DNA of 64,000 bases from Tubulanus polymorphus (Eukaryota; Animalia; Nemertea): NCBI RefSeq assembly GCF_964204645.1, contig NC_134031.1, forward strand, positions 11,968,088-12,032,087. The letters are read 5' to 3'. Made by a program: the position numbers and the translations under genes. How positions within the stretch are numbered: the stretch's first letter is position 1; each line of letters opens with the position of its first letter. Below are positions 15,932 to 37,120 of the stretch, piece by piece. The notes beneath the pieces are model-generated. The model had not been told where the DNA came from and did no database searches. It was given only the letters and a program-made list of their open reading frames with translations.

Positions 15932-15996
15932 TTAGGAAAAAAAATTACTTGTGGTGATGAGTGTTAGGAAAAAAAAATTACTTGTGGTGATGAGTG
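15932..15996. repeat. Two ~32-bp direct repeats in the subterminal region of Polinton A
   Basis: TTAGGAAAAAAAATTACTTGTGGTGATGAGTG x2. Confidence 0.85.
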
Positions 15997-16046
15997 GTGT
16001 CTCGTCCTCTCGTCCTCTGGTATGAAAGCCACATATTCTAATTACT

Positions 16047-17932
16047 TTTGACATTCCTAAAATTCTACAGAGCTCGGATATTACCTTCGACTCGAAGTTC
16101 CTCCCTTGGTCGGAATGCAGTACGGCAGGAATTCCAAATTTTTTCACGTAATGGTCATGTAAAACACGAGCCACACCGACGGCAGACTGATTTCGAGTCG
16201 CAAACGCTAACGCGTATTTCGTGAAATGGTCCGTGACCACGAGCACATCCTCGTAACCACCAGAGGGCTCCAATTTCATAAAATCCACACAAAACATTTC
16301 CATAGGATAAGTCGTCGCAATCGGTACCAGAGGCGCAATCGAAGGTGGACTTTTGAACAACACGCAACGTGAGCACGTTCTCAGATATTTCTCCACATCC
16401 GACTTCATTCCTGGCCAGAAAAATCTACCACTTACGAGTGCCATGGTACGATCACGTCCGGGATGCGACATCTCACCATGTAACAAGCGCAATACCATCG
16501 AGCGCTCGGACTTCGGTAGGACGATCTGGAAGAGTGTTTGTCCATCCATCCATTTCTTCCGACACAATACACCTTCCTTCATCACTAAATTTGGTAAATG
16601 TCGCTTGAAACGCTTCTCTTCTTTCGTTTTCAGAAAAACTTTGTTACCGGTTTCCAAAGAAAGAATAAGGCTACGTAAAACAGGGTCTTCCTTTTGTTTC
16701 AAGGCAATGTCCACCTCACCGACCACAAAACGCCTCTCCGACTGTCCTTCGGTAACCATTAAACCCTCGCAAATCGCTTCTATCACATTCTCCCCGAGGC
16801 GAAGCCTCGATAGAGCATCCGCATCGGTGTTGTTGGCTCCGCTGCAGTACACCAACTCCAAGCGAAAAGGATACGGCAGTTCCCCATTGCGTTTCCGAAC
16901 TAACACCACAGGTGACGAATATGGAGAAGATGAAGGCCGAATTATTCCTGCGTCGAGCATCATTTTCAAGTGTTGACGCACTTCATCTATCATTCCGGGC
17001 GGCACGCGGCGATAGCGTTCTTTAACAGGAGTATCTTCTGTCAAACGGATCCGATGTTTCACCAAGTCAGTCCCTGTCGAACCCAGCTGCTAACGACCCG
17101 TCATGACTAGAAACATCCTGATTCGATATCTTTTTGCTACTATAAACACTATTTACATTCGTTTCACGTTTCGAACTAATACCAGTACAAGCATCAGTGA
17201 ACTTTACTTCATCCGTTCCCACATCTTTCCCGCAGCTTCTCGGTGATCCAATCCAGCTAACCTCACAGGATCGACGTAGAAAACGTTAGCTAACGGAGTC
17301 TTCGCAGGAATTTTTACGGAGGTAGCCCCAATATTACGTACGATCACGGATACCCTATTATACTTACCCCTATTTACAGACGAAACTGACGGCGCAACGA
17401 TTAAATTACCGGGAAGCGTGACGGAAACTTGCGATGTCATCACGTTGAGATCTCCTAGTACTGGAGTTCGCAATATCCCTTTCAATACCATCTCTGAGTA
17501 GGGACCAACTTCGAAAAAAGTATCAGTTTTCACAACAGCATCTTCTGCCTCACTCATCTGATTCACATGTGCCTTCCATGGCAACGGCAAACTTTCCTCA
17601 GACGCATCTAACTGTCGTAGCAGATTTGTTCCTAAAATCACCGGGACTTGTTGCTGATAATCAGTCGTTGGGACAACCAGACATAGCACCCAATGGAACT
17701 GACGTCCTACATCGACTTTAACTTCGGAATAGCCCAAATACGGCAACGAGTGTCCACCGGCGGTAGTTGCATCTAGGATCTCTTCCAACGGGTTAATTTG
17801 AATTCCCATTTCATCAACAAATTTTTTTGACAAAGTCGATACCATGGCCCCGGTATCTATTAATGCGGTACAGCTCCTCCCGTTCACTAGCACATCCATT
17901 TCACTGGCGGGTCCGAGCAAACCATCTATCAA
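16047..17932 (-). pseudogene. Gypsy pol: aspartic protease, RT/RNase H mostly deleted, integrase truncated by Polinton A
   Basis: ALIDTGAMVS protease; RT start VVLVRKRNGEL fused directly to the RNase H end ADALSRL; HHCC zinc finger; VDFM and LHSDQGRNFES core; frame break at 17065-17204. Confidence 0.9.
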
Positions 17933-18012
17933 CTCCTCCTTGGTTATAGTGTCGGGTTTTGGACGTTCGCGTTGGGGGCGTGGTCGTCCCTCTCCACAGC
18001 CCCTTGACCGTT

Positions 18013-20011
18013 TTAATTCACATCCCTCGATGAAGGTCTCGATCCATTCCCCGGACAGTTTTTATAAAAATGCTCTGCTACTTTGCCACACTTAAAACAT
18101 CGATAAGTAGGCGGAGGCATAGGTGTAGGCGTCGCTGGCATCTTGCTCCACTCCGGGCAATTTTTTATATAATGGCCAGGCTGACGACATTTATAACATG
18201 CCTTCCCTACACCGACATCTTTCTCAAGTCTCCTAAGTCGACTATCCATTTCGGAAACCTTGGTGACCAGATCCTTCATTTCTCGATGCATATCATCTAA
18301 CTTTTTCTCCAATTTCACCTCGAAATCACGGGATGTACCGGTTTCCTTCACTATATTCGACATGGCGGCTCGATGCCCCACTTCCCGCGGTATCGCCTTA
18401 CTTCGAGCGGATGATCCCAGAGACTCTTTACTGATCACGAGTTCCTGCTCGACGACCCGAGCTTCAAGAACCAAATCTTGGAAAGACGCCGCGGTTTGCA
18501 ATAACGGACGCACAGCAATTTTTATTTGGGCATTTACCAACCCCGCACAAAACTGATTTCTGACGACCTCGTCCGAAATATCACATGAAAGTCCACGTAA
18601 ATCATCCAACCGACAAGCCCACGAAGCAACATCTTCGTGCGGTTCCTGTTTTGCCGTATAAAAATTCATCATAACCTGTGAGGGTGACAATACACTAGGC
18701 CTACCGAAAATCACTGAAAATTTGTCGATTACCTGTTTCACAGTTACAGACTTGCCCATTGACAGCAATAACTTAGCCGCCGCACCCTTAACCGACCGAC
18801 GAATAGCAGAAATTAAGGTACTGGGACTTATAGTAGTGTGACAGTGGTATTATTGAGTTTCAACAGCAGTCTCAATTCATAGGCAGTGCTGCCATCTTCT
18901 AACGATATCTTAAACTATTCCGCATTCATTATCCAACTCATTCAACAGTGCCATCTTTCGTGATAAAACTTTCGAACTTTGTTCCAGCGTCAGCTTTCAT
19001 ATAACTTTTTGTACTGAGATTGAACCTTAGGAAAATTACGACTAATGCGCGTCAGTTGCTCGTAAGTATTTGCTTCTGCGAGCAACGACTGCCGCTGAAG
19101 AACATAATTCAAAGTTAATGTTACATTTTTCTGGGAAACTGTCACGTATAATGTCCTTTTGTAATGATTTCGGTTGAATAATGATATTTTTATGGGCAAC
19201 GCTGTTGCGCTAACGACAAATTAACGGTCTTTGGCAATGTCATTCGCTAATGAGATGGGTTGGAGAATTGACTATATATACTGGGGTTTTTGGACCGTGG
19301 GGGAGACCGCTAGAAATTTTTAGATCGTTGAGATCGGTTCGTGAAATAAAAGTAATTTTGAAGACAGGAACTCTGTGTGTTGCGACTCGTTTATTCTTGG
19401 ACGTTTGTTAACATTCTATCACTCAAGTGGAATTCAAAGATCCCGTTAGTGACAGTAGGATCACCCTGTAAACAATTAACCTCATTTTTCCATTGCCTAA
19501 AATCCGCTTCTCCTTTACCCCTTTCGCCGCTAAATGAACTTATACGGATATTGCTCCCGAAAGAAACAAACGGGAACCCGCCGGAATTTTTATTAGATAA
19601 TTCCGAGAACCCAGGTTTGGCTGTCAAAACAGGGGATGAAAGACCGAAATCAAGGGTTCTTTGTATTCTCTCTTTTTTTCCTGACCCCCGCTGAACATTA
19701 TCTACAATCTGTTGAGCACGGTTTAAGGCCATCTTATCCAATTCAACCTGTAGTTGCTCGACCACAGAACCTACGTCACTCAAATCTTTGAGGGGAAAAA
19801 CGGTTACCCGATTCGAGTTAATAATGATGTGATCCCGTGTAGCCAATAGTTTCTCCACACTCTCTACTCTAAAAAACACTACCAAATAACCATCATTTCC
19901 TTGCTTCAATAGTTCTATTATACCATGAGAACGTAACGCCCTCTGAAGCTCCTCAGCAGAAACTAATTGTGGGTCAACCTGCGCAACTAACCCACGATCC
20001 TGTAATGACAT
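18013..20011 (-). pseudogene. Gypsy gag (PNMA-like capsid plus CCHC zinc knuckles), split by solo LTR
   Basis: Removing 18837-19458 restores ...CLQGDPTISPSTLISAIRRSVKG...; knuckles CYKCRQPGHYIKNC and CFKCGKVAEHFYKNC. Confidence 0.88.
18837..19454 (+). mobile_element. Solo LTR of an unrelated LTR retrotransposon (618 bp)
   Basis: TGTGAC...GTGACA ends, 4-bp TSD GTAG (18833-18836 and 19455-19458), internal TATATA and AATAAA. Confidence 0.82.
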
Positions 20012-20652
20012 GTTGCTGAGCTTCCGTTTTCCACCCAGAAATAAATGTTTATCTGTATTAATATCCCAAGGTAAATGTCAACTCCGGTACGCTGAGTCGT
20101 TGCTACTAACAGACCTACCTTTTACAAGTGTGCTTACAGCACAATTAAGCTCACAAACTAAAAACTGAACCTACTTAAGCCAGTTTAAGTCAAATCAAAA
20201 TTTTTAATTAATGAAGCATGAGAACTCGTAAGTGAAACTAAATGAATGATTACCCACTCGTCAGGTACAGCTAGTTAAGTTAACAGTAGAAAACAGACAC
20301 CTTAATATTGTTCTCAGCAAAACCAATCAAAATTCATGCACATCACCTTTAATTAAATACATAAACTTAAACCCTACCCCTGACTCCTGGTCAGGATAGC
20401 AAAAATCAAATCAAGTTTTGAAGGAAATAAATCGGAAAAATATAAAATAATAATTGACTTTTTTCAGTCACGAAAATAAATGTAAGTCACACTTTCACCA
20501 CACACCGACTAATCAACGAAAAAAGAGTCACTCCCAGCTGGGAACGCAATGTACATAAACGCAACACAGACGCAAGCAAAATAAAACAAAACTGACTAAA
20601 GAGCGATGTCTCTTCCAGTCAGGGAAACAAAACACAAATCGCAACACACAAG

Positions 20653-21110
20653 AGTAATAGGGGTAATAGGCTTTCAGATCAAAGGTCGAACGGTCGAGCT
20701 CGTAAAAAATGAAAAACATAAAAATAATTACAATTTCTACTTGAATTACTCGCGAAACTCATAAAAATGAAAAATAAATTCTCACACGCTCGAATTTATT
20801 TTTCATTTTATGAGTTTCACTCCTAATTCAAGTAGAAATTGTAATTATTTTTATGTTTTTCATTTTTACTCACCCGCCCGTTCAACCTTTAACCCGAAAG
20901 CCTATTACCCCTATTACTCTTAAAATATTCATATATATATGAATAACATTTAAATCATTGAACTTCTAAAATCAATTTTAATAAAAAATATAGTATTAAA
21001 ATGGAAGCAAATAAGTACTACTGCCCAACATGTAAGATAAATATAGATAAGTCTCAAAAAGCAAGACACAATAAAACTAAAACACATTTAGAGAATAAAT
21101 TGAAACTAGA
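20653..21110 (+). repeat. Left TIR of Polinton B (contains 266-nt hairpin 20653-20918 and the first ~37 PolB codons)
   Basis: Reverse complement of 38468-38925, with about one mismatch seen. Confidence 0.95.
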
Positions 21111-24100
21111 GTATAAAGATGATATATTAGAAACTGAATTAGAAGAATTAAAGAATGAAAAAGAAACATATAAATGTGATACATGTAATCAATCATTCAG
21201 TGATAAAAGATATTATAAAGAACATTTAAAATCTATAAGTCATATTAGAAATAAGAATAATGATATTTTAGGTGAAGATTATTTTGATAATGATAACGAT
21301 AAGAAACAGAAGACAATTAAAAGAATAAAAAATAAATTAAACAATAAAAGACCATATATGGAAGATGTAAGAAATTATATTAATTCATTAGATAATAAAA
21401 AAGATATAGAGATAACCGAAGCATTTAAAAGTGATATTGGTCCAGCAGCTATCGAGTTTAAATTTCATAAAGGAAAAACAATAGAAGAAAATAAAAAACA
21501 TTTAGAAAATATGAAAGAAATAATAAAAATAATTACAGATGTTGAATATCCTAAAATTAGTATATCAGTTAAAGTAAAGTTTATAAAATCTGAAGATAAA
21601 CCAATATATAATATAAATTCTCATTCACAACATATTATATCTAAACAACATATAGATGATAAATTAAATAAATGTTATAATGAAGTAAAAACTAAAATAG
21701 AAGAGAAATATTTTGAAGGATCTGGTTTAATATTTGATGAGATAATATTTATAACTTTACATGTTTATAACACAAAATATAATAAGTTAACTAAATCAAA
21801 ACCAATTGATGAAAATAATTTATCATATTATAAAGAACCTGATATTGAAGCATCGAGTTATATCAAACTACCATTTAAAACTAATGCTGTTATAAACATA
21901 CAAAATTTTGATGATAAATGTTTACTATGGACTATAATAAGTTGTTTACATCCCGCAACTTATAATATTTGTAGATTAACTCATTATAAACAATTTGAAA
22001 ATAATTATAAGATAGATAAGTATCCTGTTAGAATTAAAAATATTCCAAAAATAGAAAGAGATAATAATATAAAGATAAATGTGTTTGATTTAATCAAATT
22101 ACCAAATACAAAAGGTAACAACATAAAACATTATACATTAGAACCTTTATACCTATCAAAAGATTATGATTCAAATGATGTTATAGATATACTATATTAT
22201 GAGAATCATTATATGTGGATTAAACAAATAGATTTATTTTTTAGAACAGAAAGTGATCACCATAATAAAATATATCTTTGTAGAAAATGTTTACATAAAT
22301 TTAGTAATGAAAGTACATTATTAAATCATAAACAACTATGTGATAATCATGATTATTGTAAATTAGTTTTACCAAATGAAAAAGATAAAATATTAGAATT
22401 CAAAAAATATGATTACAAAAATAAAGTACCATTTGTAATATATGGAGATTTTGAATCATTAAATAAAGAATTAACAGATAAAGATAGAAAAGATATATAT
22501 TATAAAAGAAAGAAATTAAATTCTAATGAAAGTGATTATTCAGATCCTATAATAACAAATACTATTAAAAAAATTCATCAAAGTGCTGCAGCTTTCGGGT
22601 TATATATTAAATCTGATTATCCAGAACTAATTGAAAGTGAATATTATAATTACAGAAATGAAAATGTTATCAATCATTTTTGTGACTTATTAATTGAATA
22701 TGAAATAAGATTTAGTAAATTATTGAATACAAATAAAGAAATAATTATGACAGAAGAAGATAAAGAAGAATTTGAGTTTGCAGATAAATGTTATTATTGT
22801 AATCAAGTATTCTATTCATCTGATAAAAAGGTAAGAGATCATGATCATTTGAATGGAAAGTTTAGAGGCGCGGCACATGAGAATTGTAATTTGCAAGCAA
22901 AGAAAATCAATTTTGTCCCCATTATATTTCATAATCTATCAGGATATGATGCACATTTATTTATCAAACAGCTATGTTATAAAATAGAAGAAATCAATAA
23001 TGAAATAGAAATATTAAATTCAAATAGATCAAAAGATAAAATACCAACTTATAAATTTAGAATGTTAGCTAAAACATCTGAGAATTATATATCATTCCAA
23101 TTTGGTTGTCTAAGATTTATAGATTCATATAGATTTTTAAATAGTTCATTAGATAACTTATCAAAATCATTAGTTGATGATGAATTAAAGATATTAAAAG
23201 AATATTACCCAAATAATGATGATTTTCAATTAATGAGATATAAAGGAGCAATTCCATATTCTTTCTATAAAAATCATAATGATTTTAACATAACTGAATT
23301 ATTAAAAGAACAATTCTATGACGAATTAAAAAATGAATATGTTAAAGATGAAGTTTATAATAGAACATTGAATATTTGGAATCATTTCAAAATAGAAAAT
23401 CATGGGCAATTAGTAGATTTATATTTAAAATCAGATGTATTATTATTAACCGATATATTTGAAAGGTTTAGAGATGTAAACCTAAAATATTTCAATATTG
23501 ATCCTTGTCATTGTTATTCATCACCAGGATTAACATGGGATTGTGGATTAAAATTTACAGATATAAAAATGGATTTGTTAACAAATATAGATCAATTACT
23601 ATTATTTGAAAAATCTATAAGAGGAAGTGTTTCAGGTGTATTGGGTGATAGATATTTCAATGTAAATGATAATCCTGGATATAAATTATTATACATAGAT
23701 GCAAATAATCTTTATGGTTGGGCAATGATGGAACCACAACCTTATGGGATGTTTGAAATAACTGAAGTTTTACAACGTGAAAATAATGATGAATTTGATT
23801 GGAAGAAAAGAATTCTAGATATTGCAGATGATTCAGATATTGGTTACTTCTTTGTTGTAGACTTGGAATATCCTGAAAATATTAAATTCAAATCTAGAAA
23901 TCTAGCTTACTGTCCCGAACATAAAACTGTTAAACATGAAGAATTATCAAATTATCAAAAAAGAATTAAACCCGATAATCATATTCATACTGAAAAGTTA
24001 ATGGTAACTCAAGAAGATAAATATAATTACGTTGTGCATAATAGAATGTTGAAGTTTTATTTGAGACAAGGAATGATATTAAAAAAAGTACATAGATATA

Positions 24101-25032
24101 TTTCATTCAGTCAATCTAAATGGTTAGAAAAATATATAGATTTTAATACTACACAGAGAACTAAAGCTAAAACTGATTTTGAAAAAGATTTCTTCAAGTT
24201 AATGAATAATGCATTCTATGGTAAGACTTGTGAAAATATTAGAAATAGAAATGATATTGAGTTAGTTAGTAATGGTAAAAGGATAAGGCATTTACAATCA
24301 TATCCTAAGTTTATAGGTAACAGAATATTTGATGAAAATTTAGCTGCAGTTAAGATGAGAAGAACTTCAATGAAATTTAATAAACCGATTTATGTTGGAG
24401 CTGCAGTTTTAGAATTATCAAAATTACTAATGTATGAATTCTATTATAATATATTACAACCTCATTTTTGGGAAAAACATATTGAAATATTATATTTTGA
24501 TACAGATTCTTACATATTAAAGATAAAAACTGATAACATAACTGATGATTTAAAAACATTAAAACATCATTTTGATTTCAGTAACTATCCTAAAAATCAT
24601 GAATTGTTTAGCAATGATAATAAAAAAGTTCCTGGGAAGTTTAAGGATGAATTAGGTGGTGAAGAAATGATAGAGTTCATAGGTATTAGATCTAAAATGT
24701 ATTCATATAAAACTAAAACTCATGAATCAAAGAAATTGAAAGGAATTACCAAAAGCGTTGTAGAAAAGAATATTCATTTTAAAGATTACATCAATTGTAT
24801 ATTTAATGAAGAAGTTAGAAAACATAAGATGAAATGTTTAAGATCTGAAGATCATGAAATGTATATTGAAGAGATAGAGAAGATAAGTCTAAACCCATTT
24901 GATGATAAAAGATATATTTTAGATGATGGAATCCACACAGTCGCCTATGGTTGCAATTTAGATGAATACATAAAATTCAAAAGAGAAGAAACAAAAGAAA
25001 ATGAGATTATGAAAAGGATTCTAGCGTGTTAA
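21001..25032 (+). CDS. Intact pPolB with N-terminal zinc fingers and EndoVII/HNH insert; intein-free allele
   Basis: 1343-aa ORF with all Exo/Pol motifs and contiguous YFDTDS (empty site 24501/24502); insert CYYC...RDHDHLNGKFRGAAHENCN. Confidence 0.95.
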   Translation: MEANKYYCPTCKINIDKSQKARHNKTKTHLENKLKLEYKDDILETELEELKNEKETYKCDTCNQSFSDKRYYKEHLKSISHIRNKNNDILGEDYFDNDNDKKQKTIKRIKNKLNNKRPYMEDVRNYINSLDNKKDIEITEAFKSDIGPAAIEFKFHKGKTIEENKKHLENMKEIIKIITDVEYPKISISVKVKFIKSEDKPIYNINSHSQHIISKQHIDDKLNKCYNEVKTKIEEKYFEGSGLIFDEIIFITLHVYNTKYNKLTKSKPIDENNLSYYKEPDIEASSYIKLPFKTNAVINIQNFDDKCLLWTIISCLHPATYNICRLTHYKQFENNYKIDKYPVRIKNIPKIERDNNIKINVFDLIKLPNTKGNNIKHYTLEPLYLSKDYDSNDVIDILYYENHYMWIKQIDLFFRTESDHHNKIYLCRKCLHKFSNESTLLNHKQLCDNHDYCKLVLPNEKDKILEFKKYDYKNKVPFVIYGDFESLNKELTDKDRKDIYYKRKKLNSNESDYSDPIITNTIKKIHQSAAAFGLYIKSDYPELIESEYYNYRNENVINHFCDLLIEYEIRFSKLLNTNKEIIMTEEDKEEFEFADKCYYCNQVFYSSDKKVRDHDHLNGKFRGAAHENCNLQAKKINFVPIIFHNLSGYDAHLFIKQLCYKIEEINNEIEILNSNRSKDKIPTYKFRMLAKTSENYISFQFGCLRFIDSYRFLNSSLDNLSKSLVDDELKILKEYYPNNDDFQLMRYKGAIPYSFYKNHNDFNITELLKEQFYDELKNEYVKDEVYNRTLNIWNHFKIENHGQLVDLYLKSDVLLLTDIFERFRDVNLKYFNIDPCHCYSSPGLTWDCGLKFTDIKMDLLTNIDQLLLFEKSIRGSVSGVLGDRYFNVNDNPGYKLLYIDANNLYGWAMMEPQPYGMFEITEVLQRENNDEFDWKKRILDIADDSDIGYFFVVDLEYPENIKFKSRNLAYCPEHKTVKHEELSNYQKRIKPDNHIHTEKLMVTQEDKYNYVVHNRMLKFYLRQGMILKKVHRYISFSQSKWLEKYIDFNTTQRTKAKTDFEKDFFKLMNNAFYGKTCENIRNRNDIELVSNGKRIRHLQSYPKFIGNRIFDENLAAVKMRRTSMKFNKPIYVGAAVLELSKLLMYEFYYNILQPHFWEKHIEILYFDTDSYILKIKTDNITDDLKTLKHHFDFSNYPKNHELFSNDNKKVPGKFKDELGGEEMIEFIGIRSKMYSYKTKTHESKKLKGITKSVVEKNIHFKDYINCIFNEEVRKHKMKCLRSEDHEMYIEEIEKISLNPFDDKRYILDDGIHTVAYGCNLDEYIKFKREETKENEIMKRILAC

Positions 25033-25060
25033 TCAATTTCAATAAAAATTTGTATAATAA

Positions 25061-25402
25061 ATGGATAGTAAACAAGTACACAGTGAATTCTTAGATAGAA
25101 TTAAAGATACTTCAAGCGTCAAATCTGTAGATTATAAATTTAAAAAACTAACTGAGTTAACAATTCACAAGAAATATTTAATTACTAACATTGAAACAAT
25201 TACTAATAAATATGGAGATAAATTAGTAATTCATTTAGAATATGAAGGATTAAAAGGAAATAAATATAAATTCAGAACTTATTTACCAGATAGATTTCAT
25301 AGATTATCAAGTGAAGATCTAGAAGAATTATGTTCTGGTGATTTCTATTTCGTATACAAAGGTAAGAATGAAAAAGGGCACCATGAAATAGATTTCGAAT
25401 AA
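25061..25402 (+). CDS. Small conserved protein (possible OB-fold/ssDNA-binding)
   Basis: Homologue of 15602..15928; directly follows PolB. The function is a guess. Confidence 0.7.
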   Translation: MDSKQVHSEFLDRIKDTSSVKSVDYKFKKLTELTIHKKYLITNIETITNKYGDKLVIHLEYEGLKGNKYKFRTYLPDRFHRLSSEDLEELCSGDFYFVYKGKNEKGHHEIDFE

Positions 25403-25419
25403 GAAAATATGTAAAATAA

Positions 25420-26175
25420 ATGGTGGAATTGAAAGAATACAGAATATTTGTTGATTCTAGAAAACTTACAAATTATAAATCTCATAATTTACTAGTTCAA
25501 TTAGATAGAGAATTTAAGAATTGTGTAGATTTAAAATTAGTTAATATAAGTTTATGTAATTCTTTTTACAATGTATCGGATAAAACTTTTGAACATAGAG
25601 GGTTTATGATTTATATGAGAAATAAAGATAAATGGTTTCATATATTTTTAAAACCAGGATTATATAATTTAGAATCATTAGCGCAGGAAATTAATAGAAG
25701 AGCTCGGTTGAAAATCGGGGGCACTTCTGTATTTGAAATTAAATTTAATAAAATTGATAGTACTAATAAAATTAGAATAAAGATATCTAATGAACAACAT
25801 AAATTTATGGTAAACAAACCACTGGCTAAAATGTTAGGAATTAAACCGCTTACAGTTACTGGAAACGCAGAAGGCAGCTCAAATATAATACCTTTTACAC
25901 ACTTTTATATTTATTGCAATTTAATCGAGCCTACAAAAACTTTCGAAGCAACTAAAGAAACAATTTGTAATTCTAGTATACTAAATATTTTACCGCTAAA
26001 AAATGTTAAACAATTTGGAACTCAAATAAATTATAATTTAACAGAATGTGATTTTAAACCATGCATTCCTAAATTTAATAATTTTAAATTAGAAATTAGA
26101 AATCAAAATGGATATTTAATTGATTTGAATAACTTTCCTGTGATATATGAATTAGTTATAAGATGTAAAGAGTAA
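25420..26175 (+). CDS. Minor capsid (penton) protein
   Basis: Homologue of 6082..6840. Confidence 0.7.
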   Translation: MVELKEYRIFVDSRKLTNYKSHNLLVQLDREFKNCVDLKLVNISLCNSFYNVSDKTFEHRGFMIYMRNKDKWFHIFLKPGLYNLESLAQEINRRARLKIGGTSVFEIKFNKIDSTNKIRIKISNEQHKFMVNKPLAKMLGIKPLTVTGNAEGSSNIIPFTHFYIYCNLIEPTKTFEATKETICNSSILNILPLKNVKQFGTQINYNLTECDFKPCIPKFNNFKLEIRNQNGYLIDLNNFPVIYELVIRCKE

Positions 26176-26191
26176 TTTTTTCACTATATAA

Positions 26192-26539
26192 ATGAATATA
26201 ACTGTTGGACCGAGTATATGTTTTGGGTTTGATTTTAAACGTGAGAAAGAAATGAAATTTAACGTTAATGATGTAATTACACATATTAAAAATATTGCAT
26301 TTTCTAATGAAACAACATTTGAGTATGAAACAACAATAGATAAAGAAACTTTTAATGTAGAAAAGATTACTGAGTCTTTAAGATTTTACGAATTAGATGA
26401 AGATTTTATCATCGATGATATTAAAAAAATAATAATTGAAATATATGATAATCATAAAACTAGTAATGAAATAAATGTTGAATTAATCATAAATAAGTTA
26501 ACTAAATATTTTGATGATAGTAATTTTTTTGATAAATAA
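26192..26539 (+). CDS. Conserved hypothetical protein
   Basis: Homologue of 6857..7213. Confidence 0.75.
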   Translation: MNITVGPSICFGFDFKREKEMKFNVNDVITHIKNIAFSNETTFEYETTIDKETFNVEKITESLRFYELDEDFIIDDIKKIIIEIYDNHKTSNEINVELIINKLTKYFDDSNFFDK

Positions 26540-26761
26540 ATGAGTGATAATAAGTGGATAATAACTGGATTATATAATGGCGCATTACTATCAGTTGGAA
26601 CGGTTGGTTATTCAATGGAATTAAAAAAAGTATTCAAAATGGGAAGTGTTAATGTTGATAGATTTGATATCAATGATATTTTAAAGTTAACATTAGCAGT
26701 TACTTTATCTAATTTAACTATTGATTATTTGGAAAAACAAAAATATATTCCTCCCATATAA
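26540..26761 (+). CDS. Small putative membrane protein
   Basis: Homologue of 7217..7438. Confidence 0.7.
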   Translation: MSDNKWIITGLYNGALLSVGTVGYSMELKKVFKMGSVNVDRFDINDILKLTLAVTLSNLTIDYLEKQKYIPPI

Positions 26762-26785
26762 ATGCATAATTTTTTTGCTAAATAA

Positions 26786-27208
26786 ATGGCTTCTGCAATT
26801 ATAACTATTATAGGATCGGCAATTGTTAACGCTTTAGCATTTACTGGTGGTGGTTATTTATTTAAACATATTGATAAAAATAGTTCATTAGGAGAACAAA
26901 GAAGACATAACTTAGCGTTAGAGAAATACAATAAAGCTGCAGAAGAATATAGAGAAAAGAGGCAAAACTATATGGATTACATCAATAAAGAATTATATGA
27001 TCAGAAGATTTCACATAGAGATTTTCAATCAGTTGATGATGCAATGAGTTTATATAACGCAGTAACAAATAAAGAAAAATTACATCTATACAAACCTAAA
27101 TTATCAGATTATTATACCCCGAGTAAAGAACAACAGAAATATGAAATAATATGGATTTTAGGTGGAACAGTTATTGTTATATTTGTTGCTTATAAATTTA
27201 CTAATTAG
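26786..27208 (+). CDS. Putative membrane protein
   Basis: Same protein as 7463..7885. Confidence 0.75.
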   Translation: MASAIITIIGSAIVNALAFTGGGYLFKHIDKNSSLGEQRRHNLALEKYNKAAEEYREKRQNYMDYINKELYDQKISHRDFQSVDDAMSLYNAVTNKEKLHLYKPKLSDYYTPSKEQQKYEIIWILGGTVIVIFVAYKFTN

Positions 27209-27227
27209 TAATTTTTTTTCTAAATAA

Positions 27228-27662
27228 ATGGAAGATAAAGTTGATAATATTGATATTATTCCTCATGATATAAATAAAACTAAATTAAAAACATATTTAG
27301 AAAAACAAATATTAGAATTTGAAAGTGACTTAAAGATAAAAAAGAAAAAATATTTAAAAAGTAAAATTATATATTATTTGATTATAAGTGGTTCGGTTAC
27401 AATTAGTTCTGTAATAACATTTCTAGCAATATTCAGTCCATTAACACCTTTAGCTATATCAATTGGTGTGTTAGGATTAAGTTCAAGTGTTTTAACTGGT
27501 ATAAGTTCAAAATTAAATATAAAAAGTAATAAAGAAAAAATTAAAACTAATATAAAAGAAATTAATAAATTAAAGAATACACTAGATTATATAATAAGTT
27601 TAAATGGTCATATAACAGTTGAAGAACAAGATAAATTATTAAAAGAATTAATAAATTATTAA
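27228..27662 (+). CDS. Two-TM membrane protein
   Basis: Homologue of 7905..8339. Confidence 0.75.
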   Translation: MEDKVDNIDIIPHDINKTKLKTYLEKQILEFESDLKIKKKKYLKSKIIYYLIISGSVTISSVITFLAIFSPLTPLAISIGVLGLSSSVLTGISSKLNIKSNKEKIKTNIKEINKLKNTLDYIISLNGHITVEEQDKLLKELINY

Positions 27663-27678
27663 TTTTTTAGTTATATAA

Positions 27679-28980
27679 ATGGGGTTTCCAAAAGCTTTCC
27701 AATATAATAAATCAATTAAATATAATATTCCGGCAATAGATTTTAAGAAAAATATTACATATAAAAATATAGTTTTAAATTCATTAACTAATTTAGAAAT
27801 TTATGTTAATGAATCACAGTTTTTTATTTCTAAAATGGAAAATATATTTAATACATATGAAGTTACTTTTACTCGAGATGAATATCATATATATAAAGTA
27901 AAATATAATATGAAATATTGGCAGAATCAATTAAATTTTGCTGTTTATTGTGCAACAACAGGATGTGGAATAAGTTGGAATGATCATTTAAATAACTTAG
28001 ATAAAAATTCAAAGTATTCTGATTTAAAATTAATTCACACAATATTTAGATTTCACACATATTTTCAAATCAGAATAATATTAAATGAATTAGAATGTCC
28101 TTTACCCGGGTCTAAATATTTTAAAGAATTAGATAATAATATTAATATATCCAAGTTTTATAAAATATGTAATGAATTTAATATAAATATTAATTCCGAT
28201 TTTAGAGCGCATGGTAAATTGCAAGGTGTTGGTGAAGAGTATGAAATAAAAAGTATTGATTATATGCATAGAATTTCAGCTTATCATAATTATAAAATTG
28301 ATAATAATAATGGTTGAGTTAATTTCATTTTAGAAAATGGTGAAGGTTTTACAAAATCAGGTATACAAAGAATAAATCAATCTATTAGAATTTATTTGAT
28401 ATGTATTTTAGGCGCTCAAGTTGAAACAAGATCCCCAATAATTGGAAATGATAACACTTCATTCGATGCGCAGAAACAGTTTAAAGTTTTATTTGAAGAT
28501 TCCATACATGATGATAAAAATAGATCGATTCCAGAAAACATTATAAGATATCAAAATTATTTAGATAAATCTCATGTAAGACTTAATTATTGTATAGGCC
28601 CTAATCTATTAATTATTTCTAATGATTTAGTATTAAAGATGGGAAACATAATTGGTTATAATAATCTAATTAAAACCGCAACAATAAATAATTCATTTGG
28701 ATTAAATGATATAAATAAAAAGATTATTACTGCTCCAAAATTAATGGAAGGTGAAAAAAATAAAAAACATATTCAATCAACTGAAACTAAAACTAATAAT
28801 ATTAAATTAAATAATGATTCTAAAATAAAAGATTATAATACATCAGAAAATATAAAAACTGATAATATTCAACATGATATAATTAAACTAAATGATGATA
28901 ATAAATCCCATGAAAATACTAAATTAGCTATAACTTGTATAGGAATTGTAATCGGAGGAATATTATATTTTAAATTTTAA
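27679..28980 (+). pseudogene. C-anchored membrane protein, in-frame TGA at 28315-28317
   Basis: Two same-frame ORFs; TGA replaces the TGG (Trp) of copy A. Confidence 0.8.
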
Positions 28981-28996
28981 TTTTTTTATTATATAA

Positions 28997-30457
28997 ATGG
29001 ATGAAGAAATTCCATTGGATGCTTTTGGTGACGCCCCTGGTATAAGTGATGAACCACAAACTGATTTTAATGAAACTAATATTGATAATGATGATGAATC
29101 AGCATATAATTCTAATTTAGCAGATAGTGGTTCTAAAGCCCCATCAACAGATGAATTTGATAGAAGAACTAGATCAAGAATAAATCCTGAAAATGAAATT
29201 CCAGGTTTAAAAAAGGAAGATTTAGAAAATATTGGATTTATATATAAGTTTCAACATGTATTTAAAGATTCTGGATATAATATAAATAATAGAGGCGCCA
29301 GACTTTTAGTACAAGATTTAAAGTTTTTAGATGGTGAATATTATTATCGTGTGAAAGAAAAATCGGATTATTATATTAATATCTCTAATAAAAATCAAGA
29401 CAAAATAGTAGCAAAATCAACTTTGCTTAAGTCTGACTCATTACTATCTAGAATTAAAAGAATAAGTAATAGTAATGAAATAAAAGATGTAACACAAGAA
29501 GAAATTATTAAAAATAGAAAAGAATTTAAACAAAGAATTAATGAATTATTTGAAACAATCAAAGATAATCAAGAAACAGAAACAACTTCTGAACAGAATA
29601 TAACTTCCAAAACTAGTAAACTTAAATCAAACACTGAAGTTCAAACTGAAAAACTTTTACCGAATGGATTACTTGATGCAACAGATCAAGAAATAGAAGC
29701 TTTAAGTATGTTTTCTAAAAAAACAATTAGAGAAATAATAAGTATACGAAATGATGCCGATAAAATTGCTCGCGAAAAACATATTAGATATAATAAAATT
29801 AAACCTTTAGAAAATAAATTATGTGACACCAGAAAAGAAATAGAACAATTAAAATTAGATAGAGAATTTAAAGTTATTGAAGAAATTGAATTTAAAAAAA
29901 GAAATGCATATTTAGAAAAAGAAATTGATGATTTAGAATAAAACATAGAATTTCAGAAAGAAAAAATGAAATTATTATTAAAATCATACGATTATTGTAT
30001 CAATAGATTAAAAGTTGTTGTTAAAGAGTTAATACTAAAACCAAATTCTGACATATCACTAAAAGATAGAATAAAATTATTATTTAAGTTTGAAGGAATA
30101 ACAGTTCTTTCAATTCTAACAGCTGTAACTATGTTATTCACAACAATAGGTTTAGCTATATCAAATTCACTGAAATCTACTCCTACTCCAAATAAACCAG
30201 ATAAACCTCCAGGTAATAATTCTATACAAGATAAAGTTAAAGATGGTTTAAAGAAATTAGCAAAATATTTATGGGAACTATCTAAAAAATCTGCTGCAGC
30301 ATTGCCAGGAGTTATTGCTTCAATTGTTGGTTTTATATTGAAATCTGCAGGAAACATTATTAACTTTGCTGCTGAACATATTATTTTATTTTTAATTACA
30401 GTTGTAAGTGCTATTATTTTTGGTTTAGTGAATATGATATCAAAAAATATCAAGTAA
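28997..30457 (+). pseudogene. Coiled-coil membrane protein, in-frame TAA at 29939-29941
   Basis: Same-frame ORFs; TAA replaces the TAT (Tyr) of copy A. Confidence 0.8.
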
Positions 30458-30529
30458 ACCATGATATCAAAAAATATCAAGTAAACCATGATATCAAAAA
30501 ATAAATAATTAATTTTTTTTGTTAAATAA

Positions 30530-31776
30530 ATGAGTGGGAGTTATATAAGTCCTTCGAAGAATCATAGAATATCTAATGCTATTAAAGCAGAAAGATCACA
30601 TCATATAATTACTCATAACCCTTCAAATATTAATCCCGATGAAACTTTATACGTTAGAATCCCGAGATTAACACAAAATACTTTTTATGTTCCAAATAGT
30701 ATTTATTTATCAGCTGATATAAAAGTAATCGGTAATAATAATAATTATGTTGTTGATAATGTTGGAAGATATTTGATTAAAAAGTTAACATGGAGATTGG
30801 TCCAGAAACAGTTTTCTCATTAGATGATTATAATTTATTTTCACATTATAAAGATTTATGGTTAACTAAAGAAAATAGAAATAATATGATATTTCAAGGA
30901 ATTCAATCAGAAAACCAAAATAAATTAAGATCAGAAGCTAATAGCGCAATATTAACTAATGATGTAGATAAATTGATAAAAAGTATATATGGAAGCAAAT
31001 ATAAAATTCCATTAGACTTTGAATTGATAAATAATAATGCACCTTTATATAAATACGCAATTCAAGAAGACGTTATATTTGAGATAACATTTGCTCCTGT
31101 AAATGAAATTGTATTATCTAGCGTTGTTAAAGATATGAGTTATAAATTATCGAATATATGTTTAGAATATGATACAGTAACTGATGAAAATATTTCAAGT
31201 ATAATTCAAACTAAATACAATCAAGGATTTTCATTATTATATGATTATATTGATAAATTTAAAACTGTAACTATTAATGCAAATGATGAAATAATTAATG
31301 AGAATATTAACTTTCCTAGAAGATCTATTAAAGGTATATTAATATTTTTTACCATTGGAACGTATACTAATGGTGCAATAAATGTTGACAATTATTATAA
31401 TCCTGAAATAACAAAAGTAGAAATAACTATCGAAGGAATAGCGAATAAAATATTTTGTCAAGGAATGAGAATGATTGATCAATGGCCAGAAATTAGAAAA
31501 CATTTTATGAATGAAAAAATAAAATCATCTGAAGATTGTAACATTAATCAAATTGATTATTATACCGGTAATAAATATGCATTATGGTTAGATTTTAGAA
31601 CAACTGAAGATAATTCATTACATGGTTCTGGAAAAAAACTACAGAACACTAAAGATGGAATACAATTATTCATGACAAAGAAAAAGGGAATCAAAAATTT
31701 TAAAATGCATATTTATATTATATCTGACGCGCAATTAAATATTGTAAATTCACAATTAGATAGTGTTATGTATTAA
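30530..31776 (+). pseudogene. Major capsid protein, -1 frameshift near 30790
   Basis: One base missing versus copy A (TTAACATGGAG vs TTAACTATAAAG). Confidence 0.7.
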
Positions 31777-31808
31777 AATTTTAACTTTAATAAAAATATA
31801 TATAATAA

Positions 31809-32702
31809 ATGGAAGGGGGTAAAGTATATGAAAGAATCAAAGCTGATAAAGAAATCAATGATGATTTGTATTATGTAATACCTTATAAAAGAATAAATGA
31901 ATATATTGGAACATTTTTATTAAATGAATTAAATCAATACAAAGAATATTTAATTGAACGTAATAATAAAAGTGGTGTTGTTAATAATAGTGTAATTGAT
32001 AATAATGTAATACCTACTACACCTGTAATACCTACTACTACATCTGTAATACCTACTACATCTGTAATACCTACTACATCTAATAATAAAATAATATTAG
32101 ATGTTAGTGAAAATAGAAATTATTGTGGTTATTGTAATGGTGAATTTTCAAACGCTCCATCAAATTGGAATAAACATATGAATACAAAGGTACATATTAC
32201 TAATGTTATAGAACGTGTTGGTTTAAGAGAATTTATAGAACACCCATTTAGATATGTTACGAAGTTTGTTTCAAATCAAAAAGTAAATGGTGAAAAAATA
32301 TATGAAGATTTATTATTAGCAACACCTAATAAAGATGAATTAGATTTAACCGATGCTAATGAAATATTAGGATCAAACACTGTAAATGAAATATTAGGAG
32401 CAAACACTAATAAAGATGATAATGAAAATGGTACCATACGCCCACATGGTGATATAATTACAGATAAACATATTGATAATAAAGATTCTATGAAACATAA
32501 AGAAGAAACTATTGATGATATAATAGAAAGGATGAATAAGTTTAAAAATGAAACAACTATTGATGATGCGGTAAAAAGGGTGAAGAATAAGTATAAAAAT
32601 AATGAAGAATTTGAAGAAGAAAATTCGGTAGAGCATTTAAATATGTTGTTAGGGTCTGATAGTGAAAGTGATTCAGAAAGTAATTATCTAACACTCGAAT
32701 AA
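31809..32702 (+). CDS. Hypothetical protein with VIPTT(S) repeats and a C2H2-type zinc finger
   Basis: CGYC...NWNKHMNTKVH; TAAATG start; no counterpart in the visible part of copy A. Confidence 0.7.
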   Translation: MEGGKVYERIKADKEINDDLYYVIPYKRINEYIGTFLLNELNQYKEYLIERNNKSGVVNNSVIDNNVIPTTPVIPTTTSVIPTTSVIPTTSNNKIILDVSENRNYCGYCNGEFSNAPSNWNKHMNTKVHITNVIERVGLREFIEHPFRYVTKFVSNQKVNGEKIYEDLLLATPNKDELDLTDANEILGSNTVNEILGANTNKDDNENGTIRPHGDIITDKHIDNKDSMKHKEETIDDIIERMNKFKNETTIDDAVKRVKNKYKNNEEFEEENSVEHLNMLLGSDSESDSESNYLTLE

Positions 32703-32756
32703 TAAAAGTTGAAAATTTTATAAAATAATAGTAAATAAAAAAAGGTTTTAATTATT

Positions 32757-32884
32757 TAAGGTATCTAATAGGGTATCAGGTATTAGGGCATCTAATGGGG
32801 TATTAGGTATTAAGGTATCTAATGGGGTATTAGGTATTAAGGTATCTAATACATAGGTATTAGGGTATCTAATACATAGGTATA
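32757..32884. repeat. GGTATCTAATGGGGTATTAGGTATTA tandem array between convergent gene blocks
   Basis: About five degenerate units visible. Confidence 0.8.
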
Positions 32885-32891
32885 CAAATAG

Positions 32892-33506
32892 TTATTTTAT
32901 AAATTTATATTCATATGGAAATTGTAATCTCATTAATAATTTTGAACCTTTATTATTCTTTAATTTATTCATATATTCATCATGTAATTCAGGAGGTATA
33001 ATTTGATTTTCTTCCAATGATTGTTGCATAGATTTTCTATCTTTGTTGTAGAATAAAACTAGAAATCTTATATTCTCTCTAAAATCTTTCACAATTGAAT
33101 TATATTTCTGATTTAAAACCCAAGTTGTTATCCCAAAATGTCTACCAGAGAAAGCTAAATAACATAACTCACTTTCTCTAATTTTAGAATCATGTAAATT
33201 TGCGCAATCATCAATAATAAATAATGTATTAGATCCTTTATAAATATCTAATGCAATTTTTATACAATTATCTAAATTTTCTTTTACTGTTTTAGAATTT
33301 AATATAATAAACTTTTTATCTTTAAAAACTATATCTCTATTATACGTTTCATTCATTTCATAAGTTGGGCAGAATAATATTATATTATCAAAATGATTTT
33401 TATAAATAGTTTCTAATAAATATAATATGAAGTGTGTTTTACCACAATTTGTAACTCCAGTTATTAACATATTATGTGGTTCAAATATAAACAAATCTTT
33501 ATTCAT
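32892..33506 (-). CDS. Genome packaging ATPase
   Basis: GVTNCGKT, LFIIDD, SGRH. Confidence 0.92.
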   Translation of the reverse strand: MNKDLFIFEPHNMLITGVTNCGKTHFILYLLETIYKNHFDNIILFCPTYEMNETYNRDIVFKDKKFIILNSKTVKENLDNCIKIALDIYKGSNTLFIIDDCANLHDSKIRESELCYLAFSGRHFGITTWVLNQKYNSIVKDFRENIRFLVLFYNKDRKSMQQSLEENQIIPPELHDEYMNKLKNNKGSKLLMRLQFPYEYKFIK

Positions 33507-34587
33507 TTATTCTTTTAATTTTACTAGATAAAATCCATTCATTAAATTTATCATCATATCCTTTATATTTCACCAAAGAATACTTTTTTCCTTTAAGAGT
33601 TTTTGTTTTCAATACCTTTTCTATTTTGTATTCTATTTCATCTGGGTTTGGTACAAGTGATAATTCTTGTTCATAGAAATAACCTAATATTTCTTCATCT
33701 TTTAAATCAAACAATTTATAAACAAATGGTTTAGTTAATATTATCTTTTTAATCTTGAATATTTCTTCAGTAAAATTAGGGGTGTAACCTTTATAAAATG
33801 TTTTTCTATATTTAGAAATTCTAACATGTTGTCCTATTTTAAATTTAGGTTCTCCAAAATCATGTGTAACAAATGCTCCATATAAATTATTCCAAACTAT
33901 TTCTGAATTTTCTTCTTTTCTAGCTTGTATAGGTTTCATATTTATAGAACTATGTTTAGAATTATTATAACCTTTCACTAAATCATCTAACACATCGATA
34001 TATTTATATGTTTCATTAGCAGTAAAATATTTCCACATTCTAGTTTTCAATGTTTTATTAAATCTTTCTATAACAGATGCTTTTTTATCTGAATGTGTTG
34101 AAAAATATTCTACATCGTTATCAGTTAATAGTTTTTTGAAATGTTTGTTATAAAATTCCTTACCTTCATCAAATTGTATTTTATCTGGGATAGCTTCTTT
34201 AAATATTAATTTGAAAGAATTTGTAACTTCTATTCCAGTTTTATTTTTGATTGGAATTGACCATGCGTATCGACTGAATATATCTATAACATTTAGTATC
34301 CAAAAATATCCTTTGTTATATTCTTCTAAGTTTTTCATGTCAATTAAATCAGCTTGCCATTGTTGGTCAATATATGAAACCATTACTTTTCTTGTTAAAT
34401 ATTTTTTATCCATCTTTTTATGAATTTGATATGTGGGTTGATTTTGTAACCATGATTTTAATTCACTATATTTCATTTTTTCTTTATCAGATTTAATTTT
34501 ATCCCATAATTCCGAAACACTTGAATATGAAACTTCACTTTCTGGGTTATAATATAACGCTCTTAAATATTGTTCTTTTTTCATCAT
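33499..34587 (-). CDS. rve integrase with chromodomain
   Basis: WQADLIDM, IQFDEGKEF, VIERFNKTL; C-terminal chromodomain. Confidence 0.95.
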   Translation of the reverse strand: MMKKEQYLRALYYNPESEVSYSSVSELWDKIKSDKEKMKYSELKSWLQNQPTYQIHKKMDKKYLTRKVMVSYIDQQWQADLIDMKNLEEYNKGYFWILNVIDIFSRYAWSIPIKNKTGIEVTNSFKLIFKEAIPDKIQFDEGKEFYNKHFKKLLTDNDVEYFSTHSDKKASVIERFNKTLKTRMWKYFTANETYKYIDVLDDLVKGYNNSKHSSINMKPIQARKEENSEIVWNNLYGAFVTHDFGEPKFKIGQHVRISKYRKTFYKGYTPNFTEEIFKIKKIILTKPFVYKLFDLKDEEILGYFYEQELSLVPNPDEIEYKIEKVLKTKTLKGKKYSLVKYKGYDDKFNEWILSSKIKRINE

Positions 34588-34590
34588 ATT

Positions 34591-34998
34591 TTAATCCATT
34601 AATAATATTTTAGATTTATTTTCATTTGATTTATTTTCTGGTGGTTTATTGTCTGTACATGGGTAACGAAGTTTCCGTTCATCATTATCATTATCACTTT
34701 CATTATTATTAAATTTTGATTTATATATTACACCGGATAATATAATTACTGTTACTAATCCAATTGTAATATATAATTTATAATTACTTCCAGCATTAGA
34801 AGAATTAGATGGATTATTATTTGAATCAATACCACCGTGTGGGTGCTGTACGGCACCATCAGATAAAGTCTGTGATTCATTTATATCAGTTAATTTCTTT
34901 TTCTTAGCTTTTTTTAATTCTGAAGATCTTTTACCTAATTCTCTTGCCCATTTAATTTGTTTCTCGGATCTAGCCTTTTTCTTAACGCCATCACTCAT
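34591..34998 (-). CDS. Basic N-terminus, single-TM protein
   Basis: Homologue of 15081..15449. Confidence 0.7.
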   Translation of the reverse strand: MSDGVKKKARSEKQIKWARELGKRSSELKKAKKKKLTDINESQTLSDGAVQHPHGGIDSNNNPSNSSNAGSNYKLYITIGLVTVIILSGVIYKSKFNNNESDNDNDERKLRYPCTDNKPPENKSNENKSKILLMD

Positions 34999-35593: not shown

Positions 35594-35873
35594 TTATATT
35601 AGAGGAAAAAAGCAAAAAAAAATATTATAAGTATTCTTCAAATGATACTAGCTAGTTAAAGCTAAAGAATTCTAGTATTAGTTATTGTTTTTTTAGTATT
35701 TTTTATTTGTGATATAAAGTATTCTTTTTTGAAAAGAAAATATTAAAAATATAATAGAATTCACAAGCTAGTTGAAGGTATGTAATTTTTATTATATTGT
35801 ATTTAAATTCTATTTGATATCTCACTACTTTTGTTTATCTATTAGGAGCAGTAGTTATAACTGTCCAGATAAG

Positions 35874-36548: not shown

Positions 36549-36682
36549 TTATTATACGTATTTTTTTACTAAATTGGTTAATATTTTATAATCCTCTTCC
36601 ATTTCTTCGACCAACATCATCCTTTTTCATTCCTCGCTGCTTTTGATAAGTCAGTTTCAATTCCTTGATATCTAAATAATAC

Positions 36683-37033: not shown

Positions 37034-37120
37034 CCAATCAGATTTACACAATACATTATACAAGTATGTTCGATCGTTGTATTGACAAAATTTATAGTTT
37101 CAACTAATACATTATTTTAT

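Follow-up and report, generated by a model that had tools for sequence, protein, structure and literature searches.

Polinton B, a complete insertion in the window (the whole 64,000-nt stretch of DNA analysed here), carries a long, imperfectly paired hairpin at each of its ends, and the question raised by this locus is whether such a structure is a working part of the element and, if so, what it does there. Polinton exit from the chromosome and replication have so far been modelled from sequence alone. The hairpin is real, family-wide and probably under selection for pairing, and the mirror-image variation of its two halves among copies makes it likely to be a working end signal, through which a free single strand would restore the site where its own replication starts.

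The limits and genes of Polinton B are given in Table 1. Both hallmarks of the group are present, namely TIRs of some hundred base pairs (462 bp) and a 6-bp TSD, as are further Polinton features: a PolB with predicted terminal-protein, vOTU, exonuclease and polymerase regions, an RVE integrase and an A32-like ATPase. The element is a member of the Polintons and not of the poxvirus or parvovirus end types. The two TIRs differ at two positions (TIR positions 347 and 459). The TSD CACAAG flanks both ends, and the hairpin is flush with it. A Pfam run on 17 of the 20 Polinton B ORFs of at least 90 aa returned no match to an adenain-like maturation protease, which is typical of Polintons but lies outside the PolB-plus-integrase definition, and no match to an HUH Rep/NS1 nickase. 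The two ORFs of the probable major capsid gene gave no Pfam or PHROG match, and their homologue in copy A, a related Polinton in the same window, matched Pfam Capsid_N weakly (E 0.003). Three genes (27679-28980, 28997-30457 and 30530-31776) are in two pieces in B and are longer or differently split in copy A, which, despite the near-identical TIRs of B, reflects either recent decay or assembly errors. Three 118-bp tandem repeats with short palindromes (36683-37033), lie between the EndoVII ORF and a 242-aa ORF and may serve as an array of binding sites or origins.

Table 1. Coordinates of Polinton B, its terminal hairpins and adjoining features in the window
Feature	Position	Strand	Remarks
LTR-retrotransposon (Gypsy-like) body	15932..20652	-	Pfam gag-asp protease, zf-CCHC, Integrase_H2C2, rve; from sequence
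TSD left	20647..20652	+	CACAAG; from sequence
Polinton B, one complete insertion	20653..38925	.	18,273 bp; TIRs, TSD and gene content
TIR left	20653..21114	+	462 bp; overlaps start of PolB ORF
Left terminal hairpin	20653..20918	.	266 nt; - strand (3'-terminal) folds better than +
Terminal motif, 9-nt unit twice	20653..20670	+	AGTAATAGG GGTAATAGG; from sequence; reverse repeat at inner end of hairpin, 20901-20918
Bubble 1	20676..20680	+	faces 20891-20895; A-C mismatches; highly polymorphic across copies
Bubble 2	20694..20701	+	faces 20870-20877; CTC core without listed variant; loop of shortest form (12 reads)
Outer-arm segment skipped	20705..20762	+	58 nt; 101 reads
Bubble 3	20749..20753	+	faces 20819-20823; partly closed in 55% of reads
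Loop	20782..20791	+	10 nt; two listed variants (20784, 20788), both transitions
Inner-arm mirror segment skipped	20807-20862		56 nt; 59 reads
pPolB	21001..25032	+	1343 aa, uninterrupted; zinc fingers, predicted terminal-protein domain, vOTU, exonuclease, EndoVII-like insert (about 594-632), polymerase motifs
Probable major capsid gene	30530..31776	+	two ORFs (30530-30823, 30790-31776)
A32-like packaging ATPase	32892..33506	-	Pfam Pox_A32 E 1.9e-12
RVE integrase with chromodomain	33499..34587	-	Pfam rve E 7.9e-9, Chromo E 8.3e-5
Stand-alone endonuclease VII/HNH-family ORF	35874..36548	-	224 aa; PHROG 1035 E 3.6e-19
TIR right	38464..38925	-	462 bp
Right terminal hairpin	38660..38925	.	exact reverse complement of left; + strand is 3'-terminal here
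TSD right	38926..38931	+	CACAAG; from sequence

Polinton B sits inside the leader of the Gypsy-like element, and this leader resumes after 38931. The insertions are nested (window 15932-20652 and 38932-39270), with B placed between gag and a primer-binding-site-like motif (39247-39264), which we take to be of the tRNA-Lys type. The Gypsy-like element adjoins the truncated copy A at a 33-bp tandem duplication. Copy A aligns to B from B position 699 (A 23) to about 15,240; on the PolB side it is cut off by the start of the window at position 1, and on the opposite side its alignment stops in the interior of B, ~3 kb short of the end. The ACTACT of copy A at 15503 has its counterpart internal to B, near 35824. 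Neither terminus of A lies in the window, and A was rejected as a hairpin-less control; the comparison in the initial annotation, which had contrasted the visible end of copy A with the ends of B, is void for the same reason. The copy A PolB (1734-4715) has an insertion in motif C that is absent from B and matches Pfam Intein_splicing (E 4.5e-5) and LAGLIDADG_3 (E 5.9e-5), and is probably an intein that carries a homing endonuclease, here in what is likely a Polinton of an animal; the eukaryote-named homologues point to an animal host. The integrase-ATPase block runs in the same direction as PolB in A (12513-15449) and in the opposite direction in B (32892-35593), a module inversion between related Polintons.

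In the PolB of B, Pfam recognised the EndoVII insert alone, and in the copy-A homologue DNA_pol_B_2. An alignment of 77 PolB sequences showed Ser241, which lies in a GSG, to be kept in 76 of 76 aligned rows, while the vOTU residues C307 and H403, the Exo I residues D483 and E485, and residues C597, C600, H614, H616, C629 and N630 of the EndoVII insert are each invariant (77/77). An AlphaFold model of residues 101-700 (pLDDT 82, pTM 0.43) shows an alpha/beta domain in which a loop containing Ser241 connects helix 2 to the final strand. The Polinton terminal protein is described with a serine at this place in a little-finger-like fold in the accessible text of bioRxiv 10.1101/2024.03.18.585575, from which the roles of the PolB domains are also taken. 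The Foldseek matches listed for the domain were Y-family polymerases (108-133 columns, E about 0.01, prob 0.8-1.0), including an isolated little finger, and none had E ≤0.001. On the basis of motifs, model and fold matches, PolB appears to retain the predicted terminal-protein fold and to be a complete-looking protein-priming polymerase. No PDB entry was matched by the sequence of the EndoVII insert.

The initial annotation described the outer 266 nt of each TIR as an inverted repeat with arms of ~128 nt, and this description was borne out, the arms being joined by a 10-nt loop, TCACACGCTC (20782-20791). The stem of the Polinton B hairpin has 13 mismatched pairs and two single-base bulges, and the three bubbles lie where they had been placed (Table 1). 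The 11-nt terminal motif AGTAATAGGGG does occur four times, at 20653 and 38660 and in reverse at 20908 and 38915; with its 9-nt units, the motif is a candidate replication origin. When folded as DNA, the left hairpin reached -94.9 kcal/mol (z -24.4) on the + strand and -107.5 kcal/mol (z -28.2) on the - strand, and 0 of 200 shuffled sequences folded as well. The predicted fold sets the 3' end on its own template, as in a parvovirus rolling-hairpin terminus, and an incompletely paired AT-rich hairpin, as found at poxvirus and asfarvirus telomeres, is present. The term AT-rich holds in that the hairpin is 68% AT, but its GC content (31.6%) is above that of the whole element (24.4%), and AT amounts to 87% in the middle stem and 52% in the basal 50 nt. 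It is also correct that the bubbles are identical at both ends of B; they agree, however, merely because the two TIRs are identical, and across the family they vary. Rfam returned 11 matches to the hairpin, all far below gathering scores and to generic long hairpins.

The hairpin is neither unique to one copy nor unsupported by raw reads, which show it in a high-copy family. From 1,934 Mb (~12%) of run X6, which has the species label of the best-matching dataset, 15,331 reads were recruited on 20300-21800 and 9,441 on 20625-20975. Summed depth rose from ~30 in the flank to ~700 inside PolB and ~1,850 over the inner TIR, and ranged from 800 to 4,800 along the hairpin. In the second read set, 2,789 reads ran past 20652/20653 into DNA without a common sequence (agreement 0.33-0.35). 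The depth excess and the reads with unrelated flanks together indicate a family of many sites and high copy number that carries the hairpin. Contigs of runs X1-X3 cease matching at 20652, and one X2 contig extends 324 nt with other sequence, a continuation that would fit an empty site. Run X5, from a second organism (5% of words), gave just two contig pieces of ~36 nt, from immediately inside the hairpin, which speak neither for nor against it. No RNA dataset was among those listed as containing the sequence, a result without bearing on expression. There was no pile-up of molecule ends in the single raw-read run X6, and no free form of the element was seen. At 20652-20653, the reads with foreign DNA before the terminus exceed the inner-TIR depth, an excess that can come from solo hairpin modules or from subfamilies with a different inner TIR. 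At 20801-20809, 81 raw reads with 52 start sites switch strand, which is seen in no contig and represents either a branched or inverted-loop variant or a library artefact. Directly inside the hairpin is a small AT palindrome (20926-20946) with a 2-nt length polymorphism in ~40% of reads.

Variation in the reads is mirrored between the arms. Of 90 variants, 40 were listed, and the 36 inside the hairpin were used (22 in the outer arm, 2 in the loop and 12 in the inner arm), the 4 outside being dropped. A complementary allele at the mirror position was found for 5 of the 12 listed inner-arm variants, compared with an expected 0.79 (p 0.0002; 200,000 permutations), in unphased data in which reads of one arm can be placed on the other and mimic a mirror change, chiefly in the middle stem. 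Restricting the comparison to the 50 bp at the base, in which flanking host DNA or inner-TIR sequence fixes the position of most reads, left 5 variants, of which 3 were mirrored (mean 0.75, p 0.02). The mirrored pairs are 20663/20908 (32%, 38%), 20668/20903 (53%, 51%), 20691/20880 (22%, 41%), 20720/20852 (36%, 66%) and 20729/20843 (84%, 76%), and two of the five are transversions. Further listed variants, two inner and three outer, close a mismatch of copy B. No listed partner was seen for 5/12 inner and 14/22 outer variants, some of which are probably misaligned length variants.

The hairpin also varies in length and in its unpaired parts. The mirror segments skipped in the outer and inner arms (Table 1) differ by two nucleotides, corresponding to the two bulged bases. 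The segment 20755-20817 is missing in 143 reads and also in X1, X2 and X3 contigs, which turns bubble 3 into the loop, and the shortest form turns at bubble 2. Loose ends behind 20709 and before 20881 are complementary by eye, which suggests a subfamily with another arm sequence and the same symmetry. On the 5'-terminal strand, CTC stands opposite a CTC-like triplet at bubble 2, at bubble 3 and in the loop, and we infer that the hairpin is nested and has grown or shrunk, with bubbles 2 and 3 each representing a loop motif that has been split. The covariation preserving the bubbles that had been proposed as a check is mostly absent: bubble 1 drifts, varying at four positions among the listed variants, and bubble 3 is partly closed in more than half of the reads. 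The loop too has its two transitions, and the bubbles are therefore not a fixed code; only the loop and the core of bubble 2 are largely constant among the variants listed.

Flop copies of the hairpin would be expected to reveal themselves in one of three ways: by variants at 20699-20701 or 20870-20872, by reads with loose ends behind 20918, or by joints that switch strand where the hairpin begins. No such sign appeared among the 40 of 90 variants listed (smallest 195 reads), six loose-end classes of X6 (smallest 469) and 15 of 91 joints. Flop is at most a minority among integrated copies, and flip/flop ends of the poxvirus or AAV type, implied by the comparisons in the initial annotation, find no class to support them among those listed. 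The mismatches have a polarity as well. On the 5'-terminal strand, 7 of the 13 are A-C and 6 are pyrimidine-pyrimidine, so that they are G-T or purine-purine on the 3'-terminal strand, and all 13 favour folding of the latter (7/7 for the wobble type, p 0.016, counting blocks that are not independent). A hairpin in host DNA at 40895, used as a control, was mixed in this respect. Transition variants without partners were split just 5 to 2 in polarity, and strand-biased mutation could be an alternative source of it. For the whole palindrome, refolding of the duplex as a pair of hairpins would cost ~120 kcal/mol, and for the innermost stems 24-31 kcal/mol (a nearest-neighbour difference, computed without a junction or supercoiling term). 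Because full extrusion is so costly, the fold is relevant on single strands rather than in the chromosome, and the earlier suggestion of excision through a full cruciform is disfavoured. The control hairpin (40895-41266) is a near-perfect, MITE-like structure of 372 nt without a match to the Polinton hairpin; a related 66-nt piece lies at 40176-40241, and further inverted repeats at 41414-42430.

Scans retrieved 163 Polinton-related loci. The nearest relatives (L023-L025 and L029, with 65-86% integrase identity) contained no terminus. Long hairpins are present directly inside AGTAGT in two loci of ~41% integrase identity, L046 (211 nt) and L043 (150 nt), and L099 has one of 56 nt. In L046 and L043, unlike B, the terminal motif is outside the stem, and no 3'-strand polarity is seen; in L099 the mismatches have this polarity (4/4). 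An automatic terminus survey of the 98 loci with a length of 4 kb or more gave 163 motif sites, most of them chance occurrences and none a TSD-verified end; 4 of the 163 sites (L046, L043, L099 and L151) had a stem score of at least 12 starting within 40 nt. The L151 stem (score 13) coincides with an intergenic motif that is repeated, and it was left out of the ends counted. Probable Polinton ends at the contig edges of L156, L172, L108 and L112 showed no hairpin and, with several probable ends lacking it, the hairpin is dispensable for Polintons in general. In L017, an inverted repeat of 525 nt falls within the coding sequence of PolB where the contig ends; it was discarded because it is likely to be an artefact of assembly. 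Locus L011 (4657-4840) has one 184-nt hairpin between integrase and PolB, in a contig without a long TIR; the AGTAGT motifs at its base face the genes, and it may be a joined-end (circular) form. The terminal 18-mer was found at 10 loci in viral contigs, all unrelated and none of which folds; a 22-mer gave 0 matches in metagenome contigs, as did PolB when used as a single query against viral contigs. The Polinton integrase also matches 43 contigs (L103-L145) that had been binned with bacterial or archaeal genomes, where they are probably eukaryotic contamination.

The reading preferred here, tentatively, is that fold-back of the 3' end quite possibly gives single-stranded intermediates a local duplex origin and a repair template for protein priming. 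Excision or strand-displacement copying would free a single strand, whose 3'-terminal 266 nt would fold locally, faster than TIRs 18 kb apart could meet. The folded 3' end would then meet the inner copy of the terminal motif, so that a short double-stranded origin would be rebuilt, the terminal-protein domain would prime opposite the 3' end, and copying back through the hairpin would keep one orientation. A trimmed 3' end could be refilled on the inner arm, carrying changes from arm to arm. The mismatches would prevent extrusion of the palindrome while it is in the chromosome and would later tip the balance towards the perfect duplex; the bubbles would be no fixed signals but loop motifs that were split as the nested hairpin grew or shrank. 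A fold-back origin would explain why the hairpin is flush with the TSD, why the terminal motif occurs a second time, why the mismatches have a polarity, why the listed read classes show one orientation and why the terminal-protein domain has been kept. It poorly explains why basal mismatches survive, since refilling on the inner arm should erase them. The fold-back role raised in the initial annotation is favoured by the mirror variation, the 3'-strand polarity and the hairpins in distant Polintons, but not in its flip/flop version.

A recessed 3'-OH at the base of a hairpin is a natural primer, and this suits self-priming too. According to this main alternative, itself rather unlikely, the folded 3' end would itself prime synthesis to give a closed end or a head-to-head junction, and one orientation would be kept because a nuclease (for instance one of the two EndoVII domains, in PolB or in the separate ORF) would cut one arm only. 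In its favour, pairing extends to the very 3' end at the base of the stem, of the two strands the 3'-terminal one folds better, and two EndoVII-family domains are encoded, the insert with its Zn and catalytic positions invariant. There are precedents in the accessible parts of two reports, namely asymmetric resolution of the MVM left-end dimer junction (PMC1185569) and hairpin priming as proposed for Halocafeteria elements (bioRxiv 10.64898/2026.07.28.741278), and the lone hairpin of L011 is placed as a joined-end form might show it. Against self-priming, the predicted terminal-protein fold and vOTU are retained, the ORFs covered by Pfam have no HUH/Rep match, EndoVII inserts are widespread in this group of PolB and are interpreted as invading homing endonucleases, and the 15 of 91 joints listed include no head-to-head junction at the hairpin base. 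Accidental fold-back copying could instead have left a by-product without selected function, its symmetry kept by template switching between arms and TIR-to-TIR homogenisation. Accidental annealing is named as an alternative in the available text of the same Halocafeteria preprint; short direct repeats flank the segments that distinguish the length classes, a pattern known from slippage at hairpins, many variants are unpartnered, and hairpins are patchy among probable Polinton ends. Such an origin is unlikely: a 13/13 polarity and a constant loop and CTC cores are unexpected from neutral conversion, even if strand-biased mutation could give the polarity, and the listed classes include no hairpin-free end joined directly to the inner TIR.

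The remaining alternatives give the structure a role outside replication priming. It is improbable that it acts as a signal on duplex or packaged DNA, either as a cruciform for excision or as a mismatched hairpin read by a packaging protein, as in vaccinia. There, structure is needed over sequence and mismatches are required for assembly, according to the accessible text of PMC8956199, and Polinton B encodes an A32-like ATPase and EndoVII domains, with bubble-type asymmetry persisting in most copies. The cost of extrusion counts against this role, as do the need of a cruciform for both strands to fold, when the mismatches favour one, and the lack of a flip/flop class among those listed; nor is there any sign of a helper virus in these data. 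Mimicry of helper telomeres, another early suggestion, fails on this last point and on the complete-looking protein-priming polymerase that the element keeps. The 266-nt unit might also be a miniature element with AGT...ACT ends, moved alone by the Polinton integrase, of which an inverted pair caps the core in the manner of a composite transposon. Terminal motifs stand in transposon orientation at both ends of the unit, and the excess of foreign-flank reads over inner-TIR depth would agree with this, but the excess could equally come from subfamilies with differing inner TIR, the unit has no TSD of its own (CACAAG outside, CTTAAA inside) and no solo copy occurs within the 64-kb window, which leaves this quite improbable. 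Action as RNA, for example as a hairpin transcript or a stop to read-through transcription, is very improbable. G-T polarity equals G-U polarity, and RNA folding gave -171 vs -140 kcal/mol between the strands, but the terminal genes are transcribed inward, so that the favoured strand would be an antisense read-out, and the Rfam matches all fell far below gathering scores. A hybrid route in some animal Polintons, in which a terminal-protein polymerase is kept alongside parvovirus-like 3' hairpin priming and one-sided resolution by the element's own EndoVII domain, is rather unlikely, and under it the capping hairpin may move as a mini-element too. If true, it would give the so far unexplained nuclease inserts of Polinton polymerases a part in end processing and would connect replicons primed by a protein with those primed by a hairpin.

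Among known systems, Polinton B shares with standard Polintons and Mavericks ~460-bp TIRs, an AGT start, a 6-bp TSD, a TP-vOTU-Exo-Pol polymerase and an RVE integrase. The standard model of Kapitonov and Jurka reportedly involves end-to-end pairing of the two TIRs only, whereas each end of B can pair with itself. The TIRs are viewed as protein-primed origins in the accessible text of PMC8097293 and bioRxiv 10.1101/2024.03.18.585575. The end motifs given for vertebrate Mavericks in the former, (AGT)2 or (AG)3, were not found at the end of Polinton B, which is AGTAAT with a 9-nt repeat. The panhandle-only model may be incomplete, because terminal palindromes recur in distant Polintons.

In the literature searched, terminal palindromes are reported in this supergroup solely for virophages and PLVs of Halocafeteria, in a paper whose supplements may list pPolB cases. 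The available part of that paper (bioRxiv 10.64898/2026.07.28.741278) describes them in Halocafeteria seosinensis endogenous virophages (subtypes 1, 2, 5 and 6) and PLV subtype 4. As far as this text goes, those elements share with Polinton B a palindrome inside the TIR and beside the TSD, integration by RVE and the same supergroup; they differ in coming from a protist, in palindromes of 52 nt in the example with up to 4 mismatches, and in mostly non-pPolB replication genes. Polinton B, in contrast, has 266 nt and 13 mismatches in a likely animal element with an uninterrupted pPolB, and population-level mirror variation. Terminal palindromes are thus newly extended from mostly non-pPolB protist elements to a pPolB element. 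No report of terminal hairpins in pPolB animal Polintons was found in a search that lay outside the founding Polinton papers and Repbase entries; hairpins or palindromes are not mentioned in PMC8097293, PMC12220804 or bioRxiv 2023.08.22.554363, 2022.07.12.499685, 2024.01.15.575659 and 2025.02.07.637071, and in the accessible portion of PMC11296320 hairpins are mentioned for poxviruses only.

The systems with folded ends each match Polinton B in part. Poxvirus hairpins join the two strands covalently at the tip. They resemble the Polinton B hairpin in being AT-rich and incompletely paired (PMC8956199, in part) but occur as flip and flop, whereas the B palindrome lies in duplex inside the end, with no flop class among those listed. 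In the bidnavirus, a pPolB-encoding relative, the strands pair through inverted repeats, and its ends are explicitly described in the accessible text as forming a panhandle only, without terminal palindromes (PMC4938981). The left end of MVM is likewise a 3'-terminal imperfect hairpin with bubbles, and a single orientation is possible there through asymmetric resolution (accessible text of PMC1185569). MVM needs the HUH nickase NS1, and none was detected in the B ORFs covered by Pfam. To our knowledge, parvoviruses have no integrase, TSD or terminal-protein polymerase. For Streptomyces, the available text of PMC5449611 describes terminal-protein priming together with fold-back repair on the 3' overhang. 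By analogy, the patching of ends by Tap and Tpg would correspond to protein priming on a folded 3' strand and refilling of a trimmed end in Polinton B. The Streptomyces system, as far as described there, is bacterial, with separate Tap and Tpg and several short palindromes in the first 180 nt, and a few bases are repaired on the first palindrome; B has one long nested hairpin with a 128-bp arm. A 266-nt, mirror-varying, one-orientation, strand-favouring end offers a concrete substrate for separating protein priming, self-priming and nuclease cutting, and the end of Polinton B may work, by analogy, like that of Streptomyces or the left end of MVM.
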